In this document: piece after piece, positions 11,771-20,131 of the stretch
How the letters are laid out: each line of letters starts with the position of its first letter
How positions within the stretch are numbered: the stretch's first letter is position 1
Assembly (NCBI GenBank): GCA_051117555.1
Contig: JBNPEG010000006.1
Location: 10,996 to 74,995, forward strand
Source: Elainellaceae cyanobacterium
GTDB taxonomy: Bacteria > Cyanobacteriota > Cyanobacteriia > CAZCXK01
Direction: 5' to 3'
Length of the DNA: 64,000 bases
Notes under the pieces: generated by a model
Databases searched by the model: none
What the model was told of the DNA's origin: nothing
The model's input: the letters and a program-made list of their open reading frames with translations, nothing else
Position numbers and translations under genes: made by a program

Positions 11771-13372
11771 ATGCCAGCTTTGCAGGACGATAACGAAACT
11801 CATCAATGCATAATGTGTATGGCAAAAACTCGTGGTGCGATCGCAGCAGGTCATCCGCAAACAGTCGAAGCTGGGCTTGAGATGTTTCGGCTTGGGGGGA
11901 ATGCGTTTGATGCCGCGATCGCCTCTGTTCTAGCATCGTTTATCACCGAACCTGCACTCACCTCACCCGCAGGTGGGGGTTTTTTGCTGGCGCATACGGC
12001 TCAAAATCAGCAGATTCTGTTTGATTTCTTTGCTCAAACTCCACGACAAAAACAACCTCTAGATCAGATTGATTTTTATCCGATTCAGGTCGATTTTGGG
12101 ACAGCCGTTCAGGAATTTCATGTCGGTTTGGGATCAATGGCAGTTCCAGGGGCGATCGCGGGTGTCTTTCACGTTCACCAAAGGCTAGGTCGCTTGCCCC
12201 TCCATGTCGTCGCTGAGCCTGCGATTCACTACGCAAAATATGGCATCGGTCTGAGCGAGCTCCAAGCCTATTGTTTCGATATTCTCTCTCCCATCTTGCT
12301 GGCGGACGATGCCATGAAAGCGGTGGTTGCGCCTCACGGAACGCTGCTGAAAGCAGGGGATCAGCTGCGTATGACTGATTTGGCAGACACTCTCACCTAT
12401 TTAATCAATCACGGAGCACGAGAATTTTATGAAGGTGATATTGCCCACCAACTTGTTCGAGACTGTCAGATTCGAGGGGGCTATCTAACGCTCGATGATT
12501 TGCGTCACTATCAAGTAATCGAGCGCACTCCGCTGACGACGCAGTATCGAGGCAAAACTCTGCTGACAAACCCACCTCCTAGCTCGGGAGGCGCACTCAT
12601 CGCATTTTCGTTGGCACTGCTGTCCATGATTGATGTGGGTCGGCTCGATTTTGGCTCGGCAGAGCACATAAGTATTCTCGCCCACGCCATGAGCCTAACG
12701 AATCAGGCCCGAACGGACGGCTATGATCAGCACTTATACGATCCCGATATTTTGCACACATTTTTATCAGCTGACCATCTCAGCTCCTATCGGCATTTGT
12801 TTTCTAGCGTCACCAACAAATGGGGAAGCACGACGCACATCAGCGTGCTCGATGAAGACGGAAATGCAGCTAGTGTCACGGCCTCCAATGGAGAGGGCGC
12901 ATCGTATGTAATTCCTGGAACAGGCATTATGATGAACAACATGCTGGGAGAGGCTGACTTACACCCAACCGGATTTCACCACTGGCGTGAAAATGTTCGA
13001 ATTTCGTCGATGATGGCTCCTACGATCGTGTTGGGCCATGATTATCCTGAGATTGTAACGGGTTCTGGCGGTTCTAACCGCATTCGCACGGCAATTTTAC
13101 AGATTATCTCGAACCTAATCGATTTCAAGATGCCTGTGAATGATGCCGTCAATCGGGGGCGGATTCACTGGGAAAATGGCGTTCTCAACCTTGAACCCGG
13201 CTTTGACGTAGATGTGGACGCAGCCATGCTGCCCGCTGATAGCGTGATTCTTCCATGGAGTCAGCACAATTTATTCTTCGGAGGCGTGCATACGGTCACG
13301 CAGCTTGCCCCTAGTCAGTTTGAGGGAGCAGGCGATCGCCGCCGTAGTGGAGCGTTCGCTCAATGTGATTAG
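11771..13372 (+). CDS. ggt: gamma-glutamyltransferase
   Basis: Ntn-hydrolase autoprocessing/nucleophile site GSTTHISVLDEDGNAASVTASNG. Conserved GGT small-subunit motifs. Length ~530 aa. Confidence 0.85.
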   Translation: MPALQDDNETHQCIMCMAKTRGAIAAGHPQTVEAGLEMFRLGGNAFDAAIASVLASFITEPALTSPAGGGFLLAHTAQNQQILFDFFAQTPRQKQPLDQIDFYPIQVDFGTAVQEFHVGLGSMAVPGAIAGVFHVHQRLGRLPLHVVAEPAIHYAKYGIGLSELQAYCFDILSPILLADDAMKAVVAPHGTLLKAGDQLRMTDLADTLTYLINHGAREFYEGDIAHQLVRDCQIRGGYLTLDDLRHYQVIERTPLTTQYRGKTLLTNPPPSSGGALIAFSLALLSMIDVGRLDFGSAEHISILAHAMSLTNQARTDGYDQHLYDPDILHTFLSADHLSSYRHLFSSVTNKWGSTTHISVLDEDGNAASVTASNGEGASYVIPGTGIMMNNMLGEADLHPTGFHHWRENVRISSMMAPTIVLGHDYPEIVTGSGGSNRIRTAILQIISNLIDFKMPVNDAVNRGRIHWENGVLNLEPGFDVDVDAAMLPADSVILPWSQHNLFFGGVHTVTQLAPSQFEGAGDRRRSGAFAQCD

Positions 13373-13441
13373 AATCCTATGCCAACGATGCGCCAAAGAA
13401 GCCAAATCCCTACATTGCTCTCATTTGGCACCATAAGCAGA

Positions 13442-14329
13442 TTACGGTAATGTTTGCTGAGGAATGCGACCCACTTCATCGGCAGGAGAGGATTGATCCC
13501 GAAATTGGCGAAATCCTTCGCTGGCAGGAGAGGATTGATCCCGAAATTGGCGAAATCCTTCGCTAAAGAAAATTAGCCAGATTAGCACACCCGCGATCGC
13601 CAACGCTGCAAATGCAGACAATCCGGTAAGCAACTGACCTATATCAATAGGATTAGAAACCATGGAGCGACTAGTCGGGCGACGACGAGGCACGGGAGGC
13701 GATCGCTTGGGGGGCGGGGGCGGCTTTACCCGTGTGGTTGTCGTCGGTGATTTGACGTTGGGCTTAGGGCTCGTAGTCACGGGGGCGGGGTGAAACGTTC
13801 CTGCTGCTTTCATTTGCTGGAGTTTTTGGCTGATGGCGACAGGGCGTTGCCCGGTACGACTCCAGTTCAATAAGGTTGATCCAGGAATTGCCGTCAGATT
13901 TGGGGTCTGAATATCGTAAATACGCTGGAGAATGGAGCGATCGCTTGCGACAAGCACAACTAAACTGGCAGGATGCTGCTGTGCCAACCCATAGGCACAG
14001 CGGGCAACGGCTAGCCCAACGCGGGTGCGTCGAGTTAGGCCATACCCCGTTGTAGACTTCAGCAACGGATGATGCCCAACCACCTCAGTAATTTTCCAAC
14101 CACTCGTTGCGTAGAATCGGTTGAATTCTCTCGCAGTGCGCTCCAAGTCGGGATCAGGCGATCGGTCATAGAGAAAGCGCATCTCTTCATAGATGACCTG
14201 AGGCAGATAACACACCCCTGCTCGCGAGAATCCCAGCCAGTCCCGCGTGGTCGTGGTGGATAGGGTACTGATATCCAAAACCAACAAAATAGGCGGAACG
14301 ACTGCCATATATTTAACCTCCGATGCCAA
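13442..14329 (-). CDS. membrane-anchored protein with N-terminal PIN-like domain, Pro/Thr-rich linker, single C-terminal TM helix and duplicated 14-aa C-terminal repeat
   Basis: N-terminus LLVLDISTL...YLPQVIYEEM...LVVLVASDRSILQRIY resembles the PIN fold acidic-residue pattern. Followed by PTTTTRVKPPPPPKRSPPVPRRRP, a hydrophobic helix LLTGLSAFAALAIAGVLIWLIFF, then SEGFRQFRDQSSPA x2. Start overlaps the stop of the upstream S2P gene. Confidence 0.4.
   Translation of the reverse strand: MASEVKYMAVVPPILLVLDISTLSTTTTRDWLGFSRAGVCYLPQVIYEEMRFLYDRSPDPDLERTAREFNRFYATSGWKITEVVGHHPLLKSTTGYGLTRRTRVGLAVARCAYGLAQQHPASLVVLVASDRSILQRIYDIQTPNLTAIPGSTLLNWSRTGQRPVAISQKLQQMKAAGTFHPAPVTTSPKPNVKSPTTTTRVKPPPPPKRSPPVPRRRPTSRSMVSNPIDIGQLLTGLSAFAALAIAGVLIWLIFFSEGFRQFRDQSSPASEGFRQFRDQSSPADEVGRIPQQTLP
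13481..13564. repeat. perfect 42-bp tandem duplication (x2) within the 3' end of the PIN-like gene
   Basis: ggcaggagaggattgatcccgaaattggcgaaatccttcgct occurs twice back-to-back with 100% identity. Confidence 0.85.
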
Positions 14330-15863
14330 GTCGACCTGCTAAGCCAGGGGTTAACGGAAGCAAAGTAGCTGCCATTAGAAACAATGCCAACAATCCTAAT
14401 GCGGCTCTCGCATCATCAGGTTCAGATAGCTCATTTAGACTCGGGCGTTCTAAATCTCGCTGGATGAACAAAATGACGATTGCCCAATAAAGAGCAAGCG
14501 GATTCGCTAAGGTAGCTATTCCTAAGACAATGAGAGTCGCAATGGTTGCGCGTCTAGCAACTTTGCGCCCATAAATAGATTGCACAATTCGCCCTCCATC
14601 AAGTTGACCAGCCGGCATGAGATTAATCGCAGTAATCACCAAGCCAAGCCAACCAATCATCGTAAAAGGGTGAATATCAACCAAGGGTTGCTGCATTGCA
14701 GACCCCAAAATGACTCGTGCCAAAGTTCCGACGAGAATTGACCCCTGGAAAAATTCAGTTGGAACCTGGAACAAACTACCCTGATGGGATAATACTAGAC
14801 CTATGACCAGCAATCCAAGAGATAATACACCGCCCGCTGCTGGTCCTGCAAAGGCAACGTCAAACAAAATGTTGCGATTCGGCAGAAGTGATTCAAACCG
14901 AGTCAACGCACCAAACGATCCGATCTGCAAGGTGGGAATAAAGAAGGGTGGACTTAGGGAAATATTGTGCCGTTTGGCTAATACTCGATGTCCAATTTCA
15001 TGAACGGCTAATACCAACACGATCAGGCTTGTCAGGGGCAGGATTTCTGCCCAGTGAGTGGTATCTCGAAAGACATCAAACCCTAATAGCAGCCCTGCGG
15101 TTTCTGCACATGTGGCAATTGTAGCGATCGCCAGTAATGCAGCCACAATGCCTTGTACGGTCGTCGTGGGTTTGGGGTCATTCGTGCTCGGCAAGGCAAT
15201 CATGGTTGGCCGCCCCTCAGAACCCTCGACCAAAAACAACCGATAGCGATCGCCCATCCGCTCTGCCAAACTTTTAGAAAGACGGTCATGAACCGGATCG
15301 GGGTCGCCCCGTAAATTCCCCTTGAAGATTGCCCCGTCTTGATAGGGAATCGTATCGGTTACAAAAAACGTATCAATGCCAAATATCCCTTGAATAGACT
15401 TCAAATCATCCTCGGGAATTGTCGGCTGAGCACCATTGGATTTCTCGGACGTTGTGACTTTTTCAGTAATCAGCTTCGCTTTCGGTGCATCGATATCGTC
15501 AGCCGAGGGCTGGGACTCCGGTGTAGAGGTTGCCCCATTCGGTGACGATGCATCGCCAGCTCCCTCTTGAATCGGATCGTTCGTGCTTAAGAATCGATTC
15601 GAACGATTTGAGCGATGCCCTTCCGCCCTGAGCCGATTGCCTAGGAAAATATAAACTCCCGTCGATATTACTAGAAGCACTAGAATACCAACCAAATTGA
15701 GATAAATTCCTGCAGCAAACAAGCCAAAGAAAATGAGCCAGGGTGCCATTAGCGCCACCGACTGAAGCCAAGATAATATGCCTACCTTGCCATACGGTTT
15801 AGCTCGATAGAAGCCCCAACCCAAAATTCCAATCGCGACCAGAAGAACTAAAGCAGTAATCAT
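14313..15863 (-). CDS. site-2 protease, EGY-type (M50 family intramembrane zinc metalloprotease)
   Basis: HExxH in a TM helix (LAVHEIGHRVLAKRHNI). GNLR motif (FKGNLRGDP) diagnostic of EGY1/EGY2-like S2Ps. Multiple TM segments. Confidence 0.8.
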   Translation of the reverse strand: MITALVLLVAIGILGWGFYRAKPYGKVGILSWLQSVALMAPWLIFFGLFAAGIYLNLVGILVLLVISTGVYIFLGNRLRAEGHRSNRSNRFLSTNDPIQEGAGDASSPNGATSTPESQPSADDIDAPKAKLITEKVTTSEKSNGAQPTIPEDDLKSIQGIFGIDTFFVTDTIPYQDGAIFKGNLRGDPDPVHDRLSKSLAERMGDRYRLFLVEGSEGRPTMIALPSTNDPKPTTTVQGIVAALLAIATIATCAETAGLLLGFDVFRDTTHWAEILPLTSLIVLVLAVHEIGHRVLAKRHNISLSPPFFIPTLQIGSFGALTRFESLLPNRNILFDVAFAGPAAGGVLSLGLLVIGLVLSHQGSLFQVPTEFFQGSILVGTLARVILGSAMQQPLVDIHPFTMIGWLGLVITAINLMPAGQLDGGRIVQSIYGRKVARRATIATLIVLGIATLANPLALYWAIVILFIQRDLERPSLNELSEPDDARAALGLLALFLMAATLLPLTPGLAGRLGIGG

Positions 15864-16162
15864 TGTTTAATCGAAGCGTATTGCCCGAGAGCTAACCCTT
15901 GTCCGCGTCTAATGACTGTAGTTTTCCTCAAAGAAATGTAAGCTTCAAGCCAACTATAATCTAGACCGATCTTGGCAGTGAACTCCGCTGAATTCTATCG
16001 TTAAACTCTACACGGTTAAATTACCCTGTGTTTACGCTATCAATCTGCTGTCGACAATTCAACGGATATTGATGAGTTCATTAGTTTACTCTAACTGAGA
16101 GTGATGATCTTAACTGCATTCATGATTTTTTAGGGATGATTTTTTGGGACTGATATAGATAT

Positions 16163-16420
16163 TGATATATAGCAATCACAGGATATGTAGCAATCACAGA
16201 TGCGTTGTGAGCGGTGGGGCGGTCGGCGTATGCGTCTAGCGCATGTGTGAGATCCCCCGCTGACGCTGCCCGAAAAAGGGGGCATTTACAGGTCGTTGAA
16301 GTCCCCCTTTTCAAGGGGGATTTAGGGGGATCTCTAGGGCGTTACGCTAAATACATACCGGTCGGCGACCGCCCCACCGCTCACACACAATTTACAAGCA
16401 ATTTAAGGATCGCTATATAG
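16163..16420. repeat. foldback / MITE-like dispersed palindromic element (copy A, full length)
   Basis: Long imperfect palindrome. Inner TIRs tgtgagcggtggggcggtc (16206-16224) and gaccgccccaccgctcaca (16367-16385). Outer ends atatagcaatc ... gatcgctatat. The interior is rich in ccccc/ggggg hairpins. Related copies at 60802-60875 and 42100-42270. Confidence 0.5.
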
Positions 16421-16555
16421 AGATTGTGCGATCGCATCAGATGGATCGTTCTGGTGTATAAAGAGAATCTATATGTTAAGCCGTCCAAAGTCATCAAGCG
16501 CTGACCTGTTTAACATCATCAAAGGACTTACATTAGAATCATCGAGGACTAGAGA

Positions 16556-17206
16556 ATGAAGCTGATTTTGATTGGACCCCCCGGCAGTGGGAAAGGAACT
16601 CAAGCGATGCGCCTCGAGCGGCAACGGGGAATCAAACAGCTTTCAACCGGTGACATGCTCCGAGCCGCTGTTGCGTCAGGCTCTGACTTAGGCCATCAGG
16701 TTAAAGAAATCATGGATGCAGGGAAACTGGTGCCTGATGGCATCATGGTTGCCATGATTGCAGAGCGAATTGAGCAGCCCGATTGTGATGATGGCTTCTT
16801 GTTAGATGGCTTTCCTCGCACGATCGCCCAAGCAGAAGCTCTCGATCAAATGCTTGCTGGCAAAGGCACTGAGCTTGATCAAGTGATCGAGATTCGAGTC
16901 AACCAGGACGCCCTGATTGAACGAGTCTCTGGACGATTTACCTGTGCCCACTGTGGAGAGGGATACCACGACACATTTAAACGTCCGCACGTTGAAGGCG
17001 TTTGTGATATTTGTGGTTCTACCAAATTTAAATGTCGAGCTGATGATAATCCAGAATCGATGAAGAATCGATTGGATGCATTTCATGCCCAAACAGAACC
17101 GCTATTGCCTTACTATGGCCGACAAGGGAAATTAGCCACGGTAGACGGTATGGAAAGTATTGATGAGGTAGCGAAAAAGATTGATAAGGTGCTCAATACA
17201 GTTTAA
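16556..17206 (+). CDS. adk: adenylate kinase (long form with zinc-binding lid)
   Basis: [18 protein letters not shown]-loop. Lid with CAHCGEGYH...CDICGS four-Cys motif. Confidence 0.95.
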
Positions 17207-17308: not shown

Positions 17309-18781
17309 ATGTCGCCAAGTACGCTATTGCTCTCTAGAGAACTGCCCACGCTTCAGTATTCATCTACGCGCGATCGCTTCGACGAAAGTTGGGAAGCTCC
17401 GCTCTCTACTCTCCTAGGTCTTGGGCGCGCAGCGGGCGCTGACTTCATAGAATTCTTTCTAGAGCGCGTCAGCTACGTCAGCTGTCTCGCTGAAGATGAT
17501 GCGATTACGAGCATCTCTCCCCGACTATCTACAGGTGCCGGGGTAAGGGTCTTTCGCGGCAACGGAGATTGCTATGTCAGCACCAACGATCTATCCTTTG
17601 CAGGATTGAAAACTGCTTTAGAAAAAGGGCTTTCAATTTTGGGATTACACATGCCCGCGCCCTACGCTCATGTCCCTGAAATCAATCTTGAATTGCTGCG
17701 AGACTATGCATCCGCTCGTGGAAAGGAGAACTGGCTAGCGAATAGCAGCTCGATGCAAGATATGGGAGATGTGCTGTTGAGCGCAACCCACCAGCTCCAA
17801 CGAAAAGCGAATCATGTTCAGTCTCGCCGAGCTGTCTATTTTCGCGATTGGCAAGAGATATTAGTTGCGGCAAGCGATGGCACGTTTGCTCGTGACATCC
17901 GCTTAACCCAATCCGTCGGTTGCAATTTACTGTGCGCCGAAAATGACCATCGTTCGTCAATAAGCAAGCGAGTCGGAAGTACAGGTGATCCCAATTTCTT
18001 GCAGAATTGGAATTATGAATCTGTGGCTGACGAGGTTGCTGATTCTGCCGGCAAAATGCTCCATGCCGATTATGTTGAATCAGGCACCTATCCAATTATC
18101 ATGGCGAATGAATTTGGCGGAGTCATCTTTCACGAAGCCTGCGGTCATTTACTCGAAACGACTCAAATTGAACGAAAGACGACTCCCTTCGCCAAACGAA
18201 AAGGTGAAAAAATTGCCCACGAGAGCCTAACGGCTTGGGATGAAGGGCTCTCTCCACATGCCTTTGGCACGATCGACATGGACGATGAAGGCATGCCCGC
18301 CCAGCGCACTCTGCTCATCGAAAATGGAGTGTTAAAGAATTTCTTATCGGATCGAGCCGGATCGGTGCGCACGGGGCATCCTCGTACGGGCAGCGGACGT
18401 CGTCAAGGCTATACGTACGCAGCAGCAAGTCGGATGCGAAATACCTACATTGCACCAGGCGACCATTCGATCGATGACCTATTTGCGTCCGTTGACAAAG
18501 GAATTTATTGCAAGAAGATGGGCGGTGGCAGCGTCGGCCCCACAGGCGAATTTAACTTTGGTGTCGAGGAAGCTTACCTGATTGAGAATGGCAAGCTAAC
18601 GAAGCCGTTGAAGGGTGCAATCTTAATCGGGGAGGCCAAAGAAATCATGAACAAGATTTCGATGTGCTCTCAAGATTTGGGACTGGCTGCGGGGTTCTGT
18701 GGCTCTGTCAGCGGCAGCATTTACGTTACCGTTGGGCAGCCTCACTTAAAGGTAGATTCAATCACTGTGGGAGGGCGATAG
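17309..18781 (+). CDS. tldD: TldD-family metalloprotease
   Basis: HEACGHLLE motif. Length 490 aa. Immediately followed by a PmbA/TldE paralogue. Confidence 0.85.
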
Positions 18782-18787
18782 AAAACA

Positions 18788-20131
18788 ATGCCAACAACTG
18801 TTCAAGATATCTCATCGTATGCTGAAACCAATGCGCGTCAACTCGGCATTACGAAATATGACATCTATGGTTCATCCGTCGATGAAACCAATGTGCAAGT
18901 TGACCATGGTGAACCTAAACAAGTCAAAGCATCTCAGCGCTCCAGCGTCATTGTTCGTGTCTGGAATTCAGACAATACAATTGGGGTGACATCCACAACC
19001 GATGTCGATTCTCAAGGAATCGAACTAGCTTTGAAGACTGCGTACGATGCAAGCACGTTTGGGCCCAAAGAACATGTCCCTGACTTCAGCCCCGAAGCAA
19101 CGTTACCCAGTGCAGACCTTGGCGACCAAACGGCTCCTCAAGTTCTTGTTTCTCGATTGATTGAGACGTTGATTGCAGCAGAAAAGGCGCTTTTAGAGGC
19201 TCATCCTGCGATCGCGGGCGTGCCGTATAATGGTGTCTCTCAACGCGATATTAACAAGTTTTATCTCAATAGCGATGGGGCTTTACGTCAGGAGGCATGC
19301 TCATACGCCTCAATTTATCTCTATAGCAAAACTGAGCAAGACGGCAAAAAACCCCGCAGCGCAGGTGCCTACAAAGTGGCGCGTCATCTAGAAAAGCTCG
19401 ACATCGAAGGCTGCTTGCAAGAAGCTGCTGAAAAAACGATCAGCCATCTAAATTATCAAAAAATCAAGACTGGAAAGTATCGGGTTGTTTTTTCGCCTGA
19501 AGCATTTTTGAGTCTATTAGGAGCTTTCTCAAACCTATACAATGCCCAGAGCATCTTAGATAAACAAAGTTTATCGACTCCCGACTCATTGGGACAACAA
19601 ATCGCATCGCCCCTGCTATCGGTCAACGATGACGCGCTACACCCTGAAAATGTTGCCAAGGAAGCCTTTGACGGTGAAGGAACGCCAACTCGTCGAGTTC
19701 CTTTAATTACAGATGGTGTGCTCACGAGTCTGATCCATAGTGCAGGAACCGCAAAACGGCTTCATGCAAAGCCAACCGGAAATGCCAATATTGGGGCAAA
19801 AGTCACAGTCAGTTCCAATTTCTATCACGTTTTTGCAGGACAGCCTGCAAATCAACGCTACAGCTTAGACACGGCTGACAATGTAATTTTGATTGATGAT
19901 TTGAGTGCTCTTCATGCTGGGGTTAGTGCTCTGCAAGGTTCTTTCTCCCTACCCTTTGATGGTTGGTTGATTAACAAAGGTGAACGTATCAGCATCGATT
20001 CTGCTACGATTGCCGGAGATTTTCGTGACCTGCTGAAATCCATCATTTTCGTTGAGTCTGACCCTGAAATTATGCCGGGGGGGATCTGTCCTAGAATTTG
20101 GGTGGATAATCTGTCTGTGACTGGAGAATAA
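18788..20131 (+). CDS. pmbA: PmbA/TldE-family protein (TldD partner)
   Basis: Adjacent to tldD with a 6-bp gap. TldD/PmbA fold-like C-terminal region, with the degenerate metal-binding motif typical of TldE. Confidence 0.75.
   Translation: MPTTVQDISSYAETNARQLGITKYDIYGSSVDETNVQVDHGEPKQVKASQRSSVIVRVWNSDNTIGVTSTTDVDSQGIELALKTAYDASTFGPKEHVPDFSPEATLPSADLGDQTAPQVLVSRLIETLIAAEKALLEAHPAIAGVPYNGVSQRDINKFYLNSDGALRQEACSYASIYLYSKTEQDGKKPRSAGAYKVARHLEKLDIEGCLQEAAEKTISHLNYQKIKTGKYRVVFSPEAFLSLLGAFSNLYNAQSILDKQSLSTPDSLGQQIASPLLSVNDDALHPENVAKEAFDGEGTPTRRVPLITDGVLTSLIHSAGTAKRLHAKPTGNANIGAKVTVSSNFYHVFAGQPANQRYSLDTADNVILIDDLSALHAGVSALQGSFSLPFDGWLINKGERISIDSATIAGDFRDLLKSIIFVESDPEIMPGGICPRIWVDNLSVTGE

Follow-up and report, generated by a model that had tools for sequence, protein, structure and literature searches.

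We describe a pair of adjacent genes in a 64,000-nucleotide (nt) stretch of contig JBNPEG010000006.1 from an Elainellaceae cyanobacterium (GenBank assembly GCA_051117555.1); the whole stretch is referred to as the window, and positions are counted within it. The upstream gene encodes an EGY-type site-2 protease (S2P), and the downstream gene encodes a small protein with an N-terminal PIN-like domain and a single transmembrane (TM) helix, here called the PIN-TM protein (Table 1). The two appear to make up a membrane module whose genes are conserved together and translationally coupled, and we consider it very likely that they are real functional partners. A preliminary description of the locus had proposed that the protease cuts its neighbor within the membrane and releases a ribonuclease (RNase) under stress. 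We favor, tentatively and as a close call that falls just short of even, a different reading in which the PIN-TM protein is a dedicated S2P client, cut in its helix so that a regulatory PIN-like domain is released or destroyed.

Scanning a single genome from each species with a sequence pattern recovered 65 loci that encode a relative of the PIN-TM protein. Searching them by tblastn with the window S2P placed an S2P orthologue directly upstream and on the same strand in 64/64 assessable loci; the 65th ends at a contig edge and could not be assessed. The pair is also present in distant members of the family, namely P0248 and those from Leptolyngbya boryana, a Phormidium chromosome, and an Aphanothece metagenome-assembled genome (MAG), and it spans several cyanobacterial orders, mostly among filamentous, non-heterocystous cyanobacteria. 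Its surroundings vary. An adenylate kinase gene lies beside it in a minority of loci and a gamma-glutamyltranspeptidase (GGT) gene in the closest relative only; none of the window's flanking genes, including two open reading frames (ORFs) that resemble TldD/PmbA, is conserved beside the pair elsewhere. When all flanking ORFs from the 64 loci were clustered, no universal third gene emerged, and nothing conserved was seen downstream. The flanks change while the pair persists, so the neighborhood is not unique to this genome, a question that the preliminary description had raised. Homologues of the PIN-TM protein numbered 196 in a word search, and by profile search 1.84 billion representatives yielded no more than 128 clusters. 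With few exceptions, full-length members carry one C-terminal TM helix, and databases name them "PIN domain-containing protein" or "FCF1."

The junction between the two genes reads GGA GGT TAA atat ATG, in which the two terminal Gly codons of the S2P gene (GGA GGT) themselves make up a GGAGG Shine-Dalgarno sequence 8 bases before the ATG. The stop-to-start gap in related loci has a median of 3 nt and is at most 10 nt in 43/64, the placement of GGAGG within Gly-Gly codons recurs, and the S2P C terminus is GIGG in 51/62 relatives. Translational coupling, which the preliminary description had deduced from a 17-nt overlap of the two ORFs, is thus supported by the proximity of stop and start and by the embedded Shine-Dalgarno sequence; the overlap itself does not hold. 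It had depended on a TTG start at 14329 from a mechanical ORF call, which we reject because the N termini of the homologues inspected correspond to MAVVPP and hence to the ATG. Scans of positions 13000..16700 for Rfam families, promoters, and terminators gave chance-level matches only.

The window S2P is an intact and otherwise ordinary member of the EGY group with predicted proteolytic activity. Pfam Peptidase_M50 (PF02163) matches amino acids (aa) 280 to 450 with an E value of 5e-20 and 72 bits (cut-off, 27.2), and the motifs GNLR, HEIGH, and NLMPAGQLDG, each checked against the DNA, begin at aa 182, 288, and 414. A protein that is 100% identical, P0275 from an Elainellaceae MAG ("site-2 protease family protein"), carries the precomputed domains PF27677 (EGY3_M) and PF02163. 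We assign the protease to the EGY type because of the M50 match, the three motifs, and EGY3_M on the identical protein, which bears out the earlier assignment from HExxH and GNLR. GNLR has been described as a motif unique to EGY proteins, and the GNLR, HExxH, and NxxPxxxxDG motifs are similarly spaced, at 169/311/442 in Setaria EGY1 versus 182/288/414 in the window S2P (PMC6131628). The chloroplast proteases EGY1 and EGY2 of plants and their relatives Slr0643 and Sll0862 of Synechocystis share with the window S2P the M50 core, HExxH, NxxPxxxxDG, and GNLR; unlike the window S2P, they have no reported PIN-TM partner. The N terminus has hydropathy peaks at aa 1 to 19, 27 to 51, and 48 to 66, and an AlphaFold2 (AF2) model places helices at aa 2 to 50 and 57 to 92. 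An acidic segment (aa 89 to 147; predicted local distance difference test [pLDDT], <50) is unconserved in a sequence alignment and precedes strands and helices at aa 151 to 225 (pLDDT, about 70 to 84). Arg-rich loops suggest an orientation in which this GNLR-bearing domain is probably cytoplasmic. The S2P model is of poor to moderate quality (mean pLDDT of 64; <50 over the last 100 aa), and a Foldseek search with it returned no match at an E value of ≤0.001, adding nothing beyond the motifs.

The PIN-TM protein has the layout that the preliminary description had read from its sequence: a PIN-like domain, a linker, one TM helix, and a duplicated tail. In an AF2 model built on a 26-sequence alignment, aa 1 to 170 form a confident domain (pLDDT, >90), followed by a disordered linker (about 42 to 58), a helix at aa 223 to 248, and a short helix at aa 250 to 256. 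Hydropathy likewise finds exactly one hydrophobic helix, which is Ala/Gly/Ser-rich with a semi-conserved LAL..L..AG pattern and cannot be distinguished from ordinary TM helices. The linker (aa 171 to 222) is Pro/Ser/Thr/Arg-rich with a net charge of +9, and that of the tail is 0; in the family at large, linker length varies between 16 and 157 aa with no sequence conservation, and 98% of 266 members have a linker with net positive charge. By the positive-inside rule, the positive linker and neutral tail point to a single-pass, tail-anchored protein with a cytoplasmic N terminus (N-in) and a short external tail, as in type II S2P substrates, in agreement with the substrate-like single-pass architecture proposed earlier. 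The tail measures 40 aa in the window and 26 aa without its duplication (family median, 28 aa after a 19-residue hydrophobic core), short enough to enter a protease without prior trimming, as in S2P substrates.

The strongest conservation in the C-terminal half of the family lies not in the TM helix but in an external motif just past it, W(91%)RxxQP(87%)xSFxQFWQxxxLP(90%)xLP, of which the window's clade carries a degenerate version (W..F..F..P). Its juxtamembrane position and conservation suggest a candidate docking or sensing site. The 42-nt duplication falls exactly on this motif, right after the helix. Tandem Repeats Finder (TRF) reports a period of 42, 100% matches, and a score of 168, and the repeat encodes SEGFRQFRDQSSPA twice. 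Only one copy is present in the closest homologues, P0025 and the 87% identical P0001, and the duplication is evidently recent. The best database match of the PIN-TM protein is 87% identical versus 100% for the S2P, which is consistent with an assembly- or strain-specific duplication.

Table 1. Features of the S2P and PIN-TM gene pair, its flanks in the window, and related loci in other genomes
Feature	Position	Strand	Details	Basis
GGT gene	11771..13372	+	convergent with PIN-TM gene	Pfam
Tail-anchored PIN-like protein (PIN-TM) gene	13442..14308	-	288 aa from ATG, stop codon included	
Short tail, predicted extracytoplasmic	13445..13564	-	aa 249-288; degenerate family tail motif	
Perfect tandem duplication, 42 nt	13481..13564	.	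2.0 copies; juxtamembrane tail segment SEGFRQFRDQSSPA	TRF
Single TM helix	13565..13642	-	aa 223-248; IGQLLTGLSAFAALAIAGVLIWLIFF	hydropathy 2.54, model
Disordered basic Ser/Thr/Pro-rich linker	13643..13798	-	aa 171-222; net charge +9	pLDDT, charge
PIN_4-like domain, predicted cytoplasmic	13799..14308	-	aa 1-170; D12, E41/E42, D123 present, motif-III Asp absent (T95/G98)	
Coupling junction	14306..14321	-	GGAGG 14317..14321, TAA 14313..14315, 4-nt spacer, ATG 14306..14308	
EGY-type S2P gene	14313..15863	-	516 aa, stop codon included	ORF, Pfam M50
S2P M50 membrane core	14316..15161	-	HEIGH (14988..15002), NLMPAGQLDG (14595..14624)	motifs, Pfam
S2P small alpha/beta domain	15186..15416	-	~aa 150-226; EGY signature GNLR (15309..15320)	motif, model
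S2P low-complexity, predicted-disordered segment	15423..15599	-	aa 89-147	pLDDT <50
S2P N-terminal extension	15645..15863	-	aa 1-73; ~3 hydrophobic helices	hydropathy, AF2 model
Adenylate kinase gene	16556..17206	+	divergent from S2P	Pfam
Two further ORFs	17309..20131	+	TldD/PmbA-like	by eye only
S2Ps lacking HExxH	L005, L014, L017, L047, L048, L050, L054		loci in other genomes	
GAF-HD-GYP-adjacent PIN-TM loci	L068:4001-6453; L069:4001-6345		loci in other genomes	

Comparison of 62 full-length PIN-adjacent S2P orthologues shows that GNLR is retained in all 62 and HExxH in 55. In the other seven, which include those of cultured FACHB-471, FACHB-502, and Leptolyngbya sp. AN02str, HExxH is replaced at the exact position by NEIGR, YELGR, YEIAR, TEIAH, REVGH, or HDIGH. 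The losses represent at least five independent variants, and both ORFs are still intact and adjacent. Each of the seven keeps GNLR, 6/7 keep NxxPxxxxDG, and nothing sets apart the PIN-TM proteins beside them, which are intact. Roughly a tenth of the paired proteases therefore look catalytically dead, and since these seven keep the pair, the partnership does not seem always to rely on proteolysis. The loss of zinc-binding His residues with retention of GNLR resembles plant EGY3; the cyanobacterial losses differ in being scattered and independent inside an otherwise active orthologue group, in which the window S2P is intact. EGY3 has been described as plant-only (PMC9355673), and the replaced motifs suggest that EGY3-like pseudoproteases arose in cyanobacteria.

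The persistence of the pair beside such proteases raises the alternative that the PIN-TM protein is not cleaved and instead serves as a stoichiometric regulator, gate, adaptor, or scaffold of the S2P, in the manner of SpoIVFA or BofA with SpoIVFB, or of the non-proteolytic role proposed for plant EGY3. Coupling across a 1- to 4-nt gap would suit an equimolar complex, and a tail motif that outdoes the TM helix in conservation suggests a docking element. The spoIVFA-spoIVFB operon offers a precedent for such an arrangement. We nevertheless judge this alternative rather unlikely. All catalytic motifs are retained in 55/62 partner proteases, the window S2P among them, and S2Ps cleave exactly this kind of protein, single-pass, N-in, and short-tailed; moreover, we saw no homology to SpoIVFA or BofA, although no search was aimed at them.

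The nature of the PIN-like domain bears on a second alternative. Structural searches confirm the alpha/beta/alpha PIN fold that had been predicted, with the PIN nucleases SMG6/EST1A and Rrp44 as the best matches and the pseudo-PINs SMG5 and Nmd4 also among them. PIN_4 is the only Pfam family that matches, below threshold for the window domain (E value of 0.15, 12.8 bits versus a cut-off of 21.9) and weakly for 26/32 diverse family members (best E value, 4e-9); a Pfam scan of the full-length PIN-TM protein gave no match. NCBIfam gave no meaningful match for either protein of the pair, and searches of PDB sequences returned nothing relevant, whether made with a profile of the clade, one of the whole family, or a sequence from the P0234 group.

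PIN nucleases rely on a conserved set of acidic residues, and the preliminary description had expected a complete acidic quartet, which is not what we find. Motif I (LVLD12), motif II (YE41E42M), and motif IV (VASD123R, which we take to resemble the T-x-D of SMG6/Fcf1) are present in the window protein. Motif III, which presumably lies at the N terminus of the helix before strand 4 at the equivalent of SMG6 D1353 and VapC D98, reads T95/G98; the distant P0234 subgroup aligns D-R-Q-I-L-A-C there. SMG6 and VapC cannot do without the motif-III Asp, and its loss in SMG5 goes together with inactivity. Among 67 verified S2P-linked members, positions 95 and 98 are acidic in none, D12 and E42 are present in all, and D123 is present in 58/65 linked loci. 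A less biased set of 101 family representatives has D or E at position 12 in 95 and E42 in 84, and position 123 is D or E in about 50 and N, S, T, or Q in about 39. The S2P-linked proteins of Phormidium and Aphanothece carry Ser at position 123, and Ser or Asn also occupies it in P0248 and at five other linked loci. The best-conserved residues family-wide are W24, P36, E42, E56, R64, W71, H80, S/T92, R96, N137, W149, and P156. Because the motif-III acid is absent and D123 is variable, the conserved role of the domain appears to need no full metal site, and the domain is probably not a classical Mg-dependent endonuclease or ordinary RNase. It thus resembles SMG5 and Nmd4, inactive protein-binding pseudo-PINs, in lacking part of the acid set that active SMG6 has, and it differs from all three PIN_4-type proteins in being bacterial, in its C-terminal helix tether, and in its family-specific conserved residues.

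These residues make it improbable that the PIN-TM protein is an S2P substrate whose released domain is an active RNase, the stress-triggered RNase-release module envisaged in the preliminary description. That proposal draws on the nucleases among the best structural matches, on acidic residues that are invariant in the window's clade (D12, E41, E42, and D123, with D52, D54, and E56 as possible compensation), and on the substrate-like topology and strict S2P linkage. It is opposed by the missing motif-III Asp in 67/67 linked members, the inconstancy of D123, the subthreshold PIN_4 match, the seven proteases without HExxH, and the lack of any antitoxin-like or RNA-related neighbor gene. We hold in similarly low regard the idea that an EGY-type S2P, through regulated intramembrane proteolysis (RIP), liberates a PIN-like domain which goes on to cut or bind specific RNAs. 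Least probable of all is that the genes share a transcript without any functional relation, for instance an anchored RNA-binding or decay factor beside a housekeeping S2P: some PIN-TM members do lack an adjacent S2P, and S2P orthologues (>3360 matches) are far commoner than the PIN-TM family (128 clusters), but the two are adjacent in every assessable locus across several orders despite flank turnover, with a Shine-Dalgarno sequence embedded in conserved S2P codons, and a pairing so persistent would be unusual for unrelated genes.

We read the PIN-TM protein as a client or partner of the S2P because of strict co-conservation while the flanks turn over, translational coupling, and substrate-like anatomy, and the catalytic motifs that are intact in the window S2P and 55/62 partners count in favor of a client. 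As a dedicated client, the protein would hold a cytoplasmic PIN_4-like domain and basic linker at the membrane through one helix, with its conserved tail outside. The S2P would cut inside the small-residue-rich TM helix and detach the PIN-like domain from the membrane, whereupon the domain may become exposed to degradation. Site-1 trimming would be unnecessary, given a tail that is short from the outset. The domain itself would most likely have a binding or regulatory function directed at RNA, a protein, or a small ligand.

Several points weigh against this client reading. We infer both the interaction and the cleavage of the pair from sequence features and structure predictions. Known S2P substrates are usually encoded away from the protease, and the lone classical operon precedent, spoIVFA-spoIVFB, joins a protease with a regulator. 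One S2P orthologue, from Coleofasciculus, lacks a downstream partner gene, and five of the more distant PIN-TM family members examined have no adjacent S2P. The 7/62 partner S2Ps that lack HExxH while the pair persists fit a non-proteolytic complex better. The placement of motif III depends on alignment to the P0234 subgroup and on the motifs of SMG6. Finally, D12, E41, E42, and D123 are invariant within the window's own clade, as are D52, D54, and E56, so the domain in this clade may retain residual or non-canonical catalysis.

The module is similar to anti-sigma RIP pairs in anatomy and to the spoIVF operon in linkage, and it belongs to neither. With RseA and RsiW, the substrates in the RseA-RseP and RsiW-RasP pairs, the PIN-TM protein shares a single-pass, N-in topology, a cytoplasmic domain that would bind an effector, and a TM helix with many small residues, which in RseA and RsiW is cleaved by an S2P. 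These anti-sigma factors differ in having a sizeable external domain that needs site-1 trimming and in being encoded with a sigma factor and not with the protease; the PIN-TM protein has a tail of about 25 to 40 aa, a gene coupled to that of the S2P, and a cytoplasmic PIN fold. In Bacillus subtilis, spoIVFA-spoIVFB likewise encodes an S2P together with a single-pass membrane protein, and SpoIVFA forms a complex with SpoIVFB. SpoIVFA, however, is a regulator or scaffold that lacks a PIN fold and has a large domain outside the cytoplasm, the gene order is reversed, and we saw no sequence relationship. A VapBC toxin-antitoxin module was considered and is ruled out: the upstream gene encodes a 516-aa S2P and not a small antitoxin, and VapC is a free cytoplasmic toxin, whereas the PIN-TM protein is membrane-anchored and lacks the motif-III Asp. 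The PADLOC models of anti-phage defense matched neither protein. As the preliminary description had supposed, no S2P-PIN pair seems to have been described: in the library that we searched, no paper links a PIN domain with an S2P or any other intramembrane protease.

Gene contexts elsewhere in the family point to signaling. In two PIN-TM homologues that lack an S2P neighbor, the stop codon overlaps the start of a gene encoding GAF and HD-GYP (HD_5) domains by 1 or 4 nt, which suggests that this gene is an alternative signaling partner; the upstream genes of the S2P-less homologues, of unknown function, show no relationship to one another. In L. boryana, the pair is followed (L067:4771-7751) by an unknown 259-aa gene, a response regulator-GAF-SpoIIE (PP2C) phosphatase gene, and an RsbW-like HATPase_c_2 kinase gene, which constitute a partner-switching signaling neighborhood. 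A signaling role for the PIN-TM protein fits both the GAF-HD-GYP adjacency and these L. boryana genes. As a variant of the improbable reading in which RIP frees an RNA-cutting or RNA-binding domain, a degenerate PIN pocket would sense a nucleotide ligand, which would connect the module with the GAF-HD-GYP genes found in place of the S2P in other lineages.

Two further observations concern the family and its synteny. The P0234-type subgroup (P0234, P0237, P0240, P0242, and P0243; L066, L071, and L072) combines PIN, TM helix, and a conserved external C-terminal domain of ~120 aa that contains LSRLKHKYAIEVLATSGQLAEA. The canonical motif-III Asp (DRQILAC) is present in 4/5 of these members and is Ser in P0243; P0234, the only one with gene context available, has no adjacent S2P, and the contig of P0240 ends too soon to reveal its neighbors. 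A DUF3110 gene and a MurQ-like SIS gene lie on the same strand upstream of the S2P in 22 to 25 of the 64 loci and in Phormidium (examples at L033:2861-3460, L049:3288-4358, and L076:2079-3434). The order DUF3110, MurQ, S2P, PIN-TM is an older, partly eroded synteny block, of which the window lacks DUF3110 and MurQ.

To our knowledge, the substrates of plant EGY proteases are poorly defined. The in vivo substrates of cyanobacterial S2Ps have likewise been described as unknown (PMC4284730). The conserved partner gene of this EGY-type S2P offers a concrete, testable candidate for a client or regulator, and its product is small and single-pass and hence easy to tag. At least one host, L. boryana, is genetically tractable. 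If cleaved, the PIN-TM protein would add to the substrates of RIP one with a PIN-like cytoplasmic part in place of an anti-sigma or transcription-factor domain. Were release of an RNA-cutting or RNA-binding domain true, it would connect stress at the membrane or envelope directly with post-transcriptional control, and the domain would be the first nuclease or RNA effector under RIP control.

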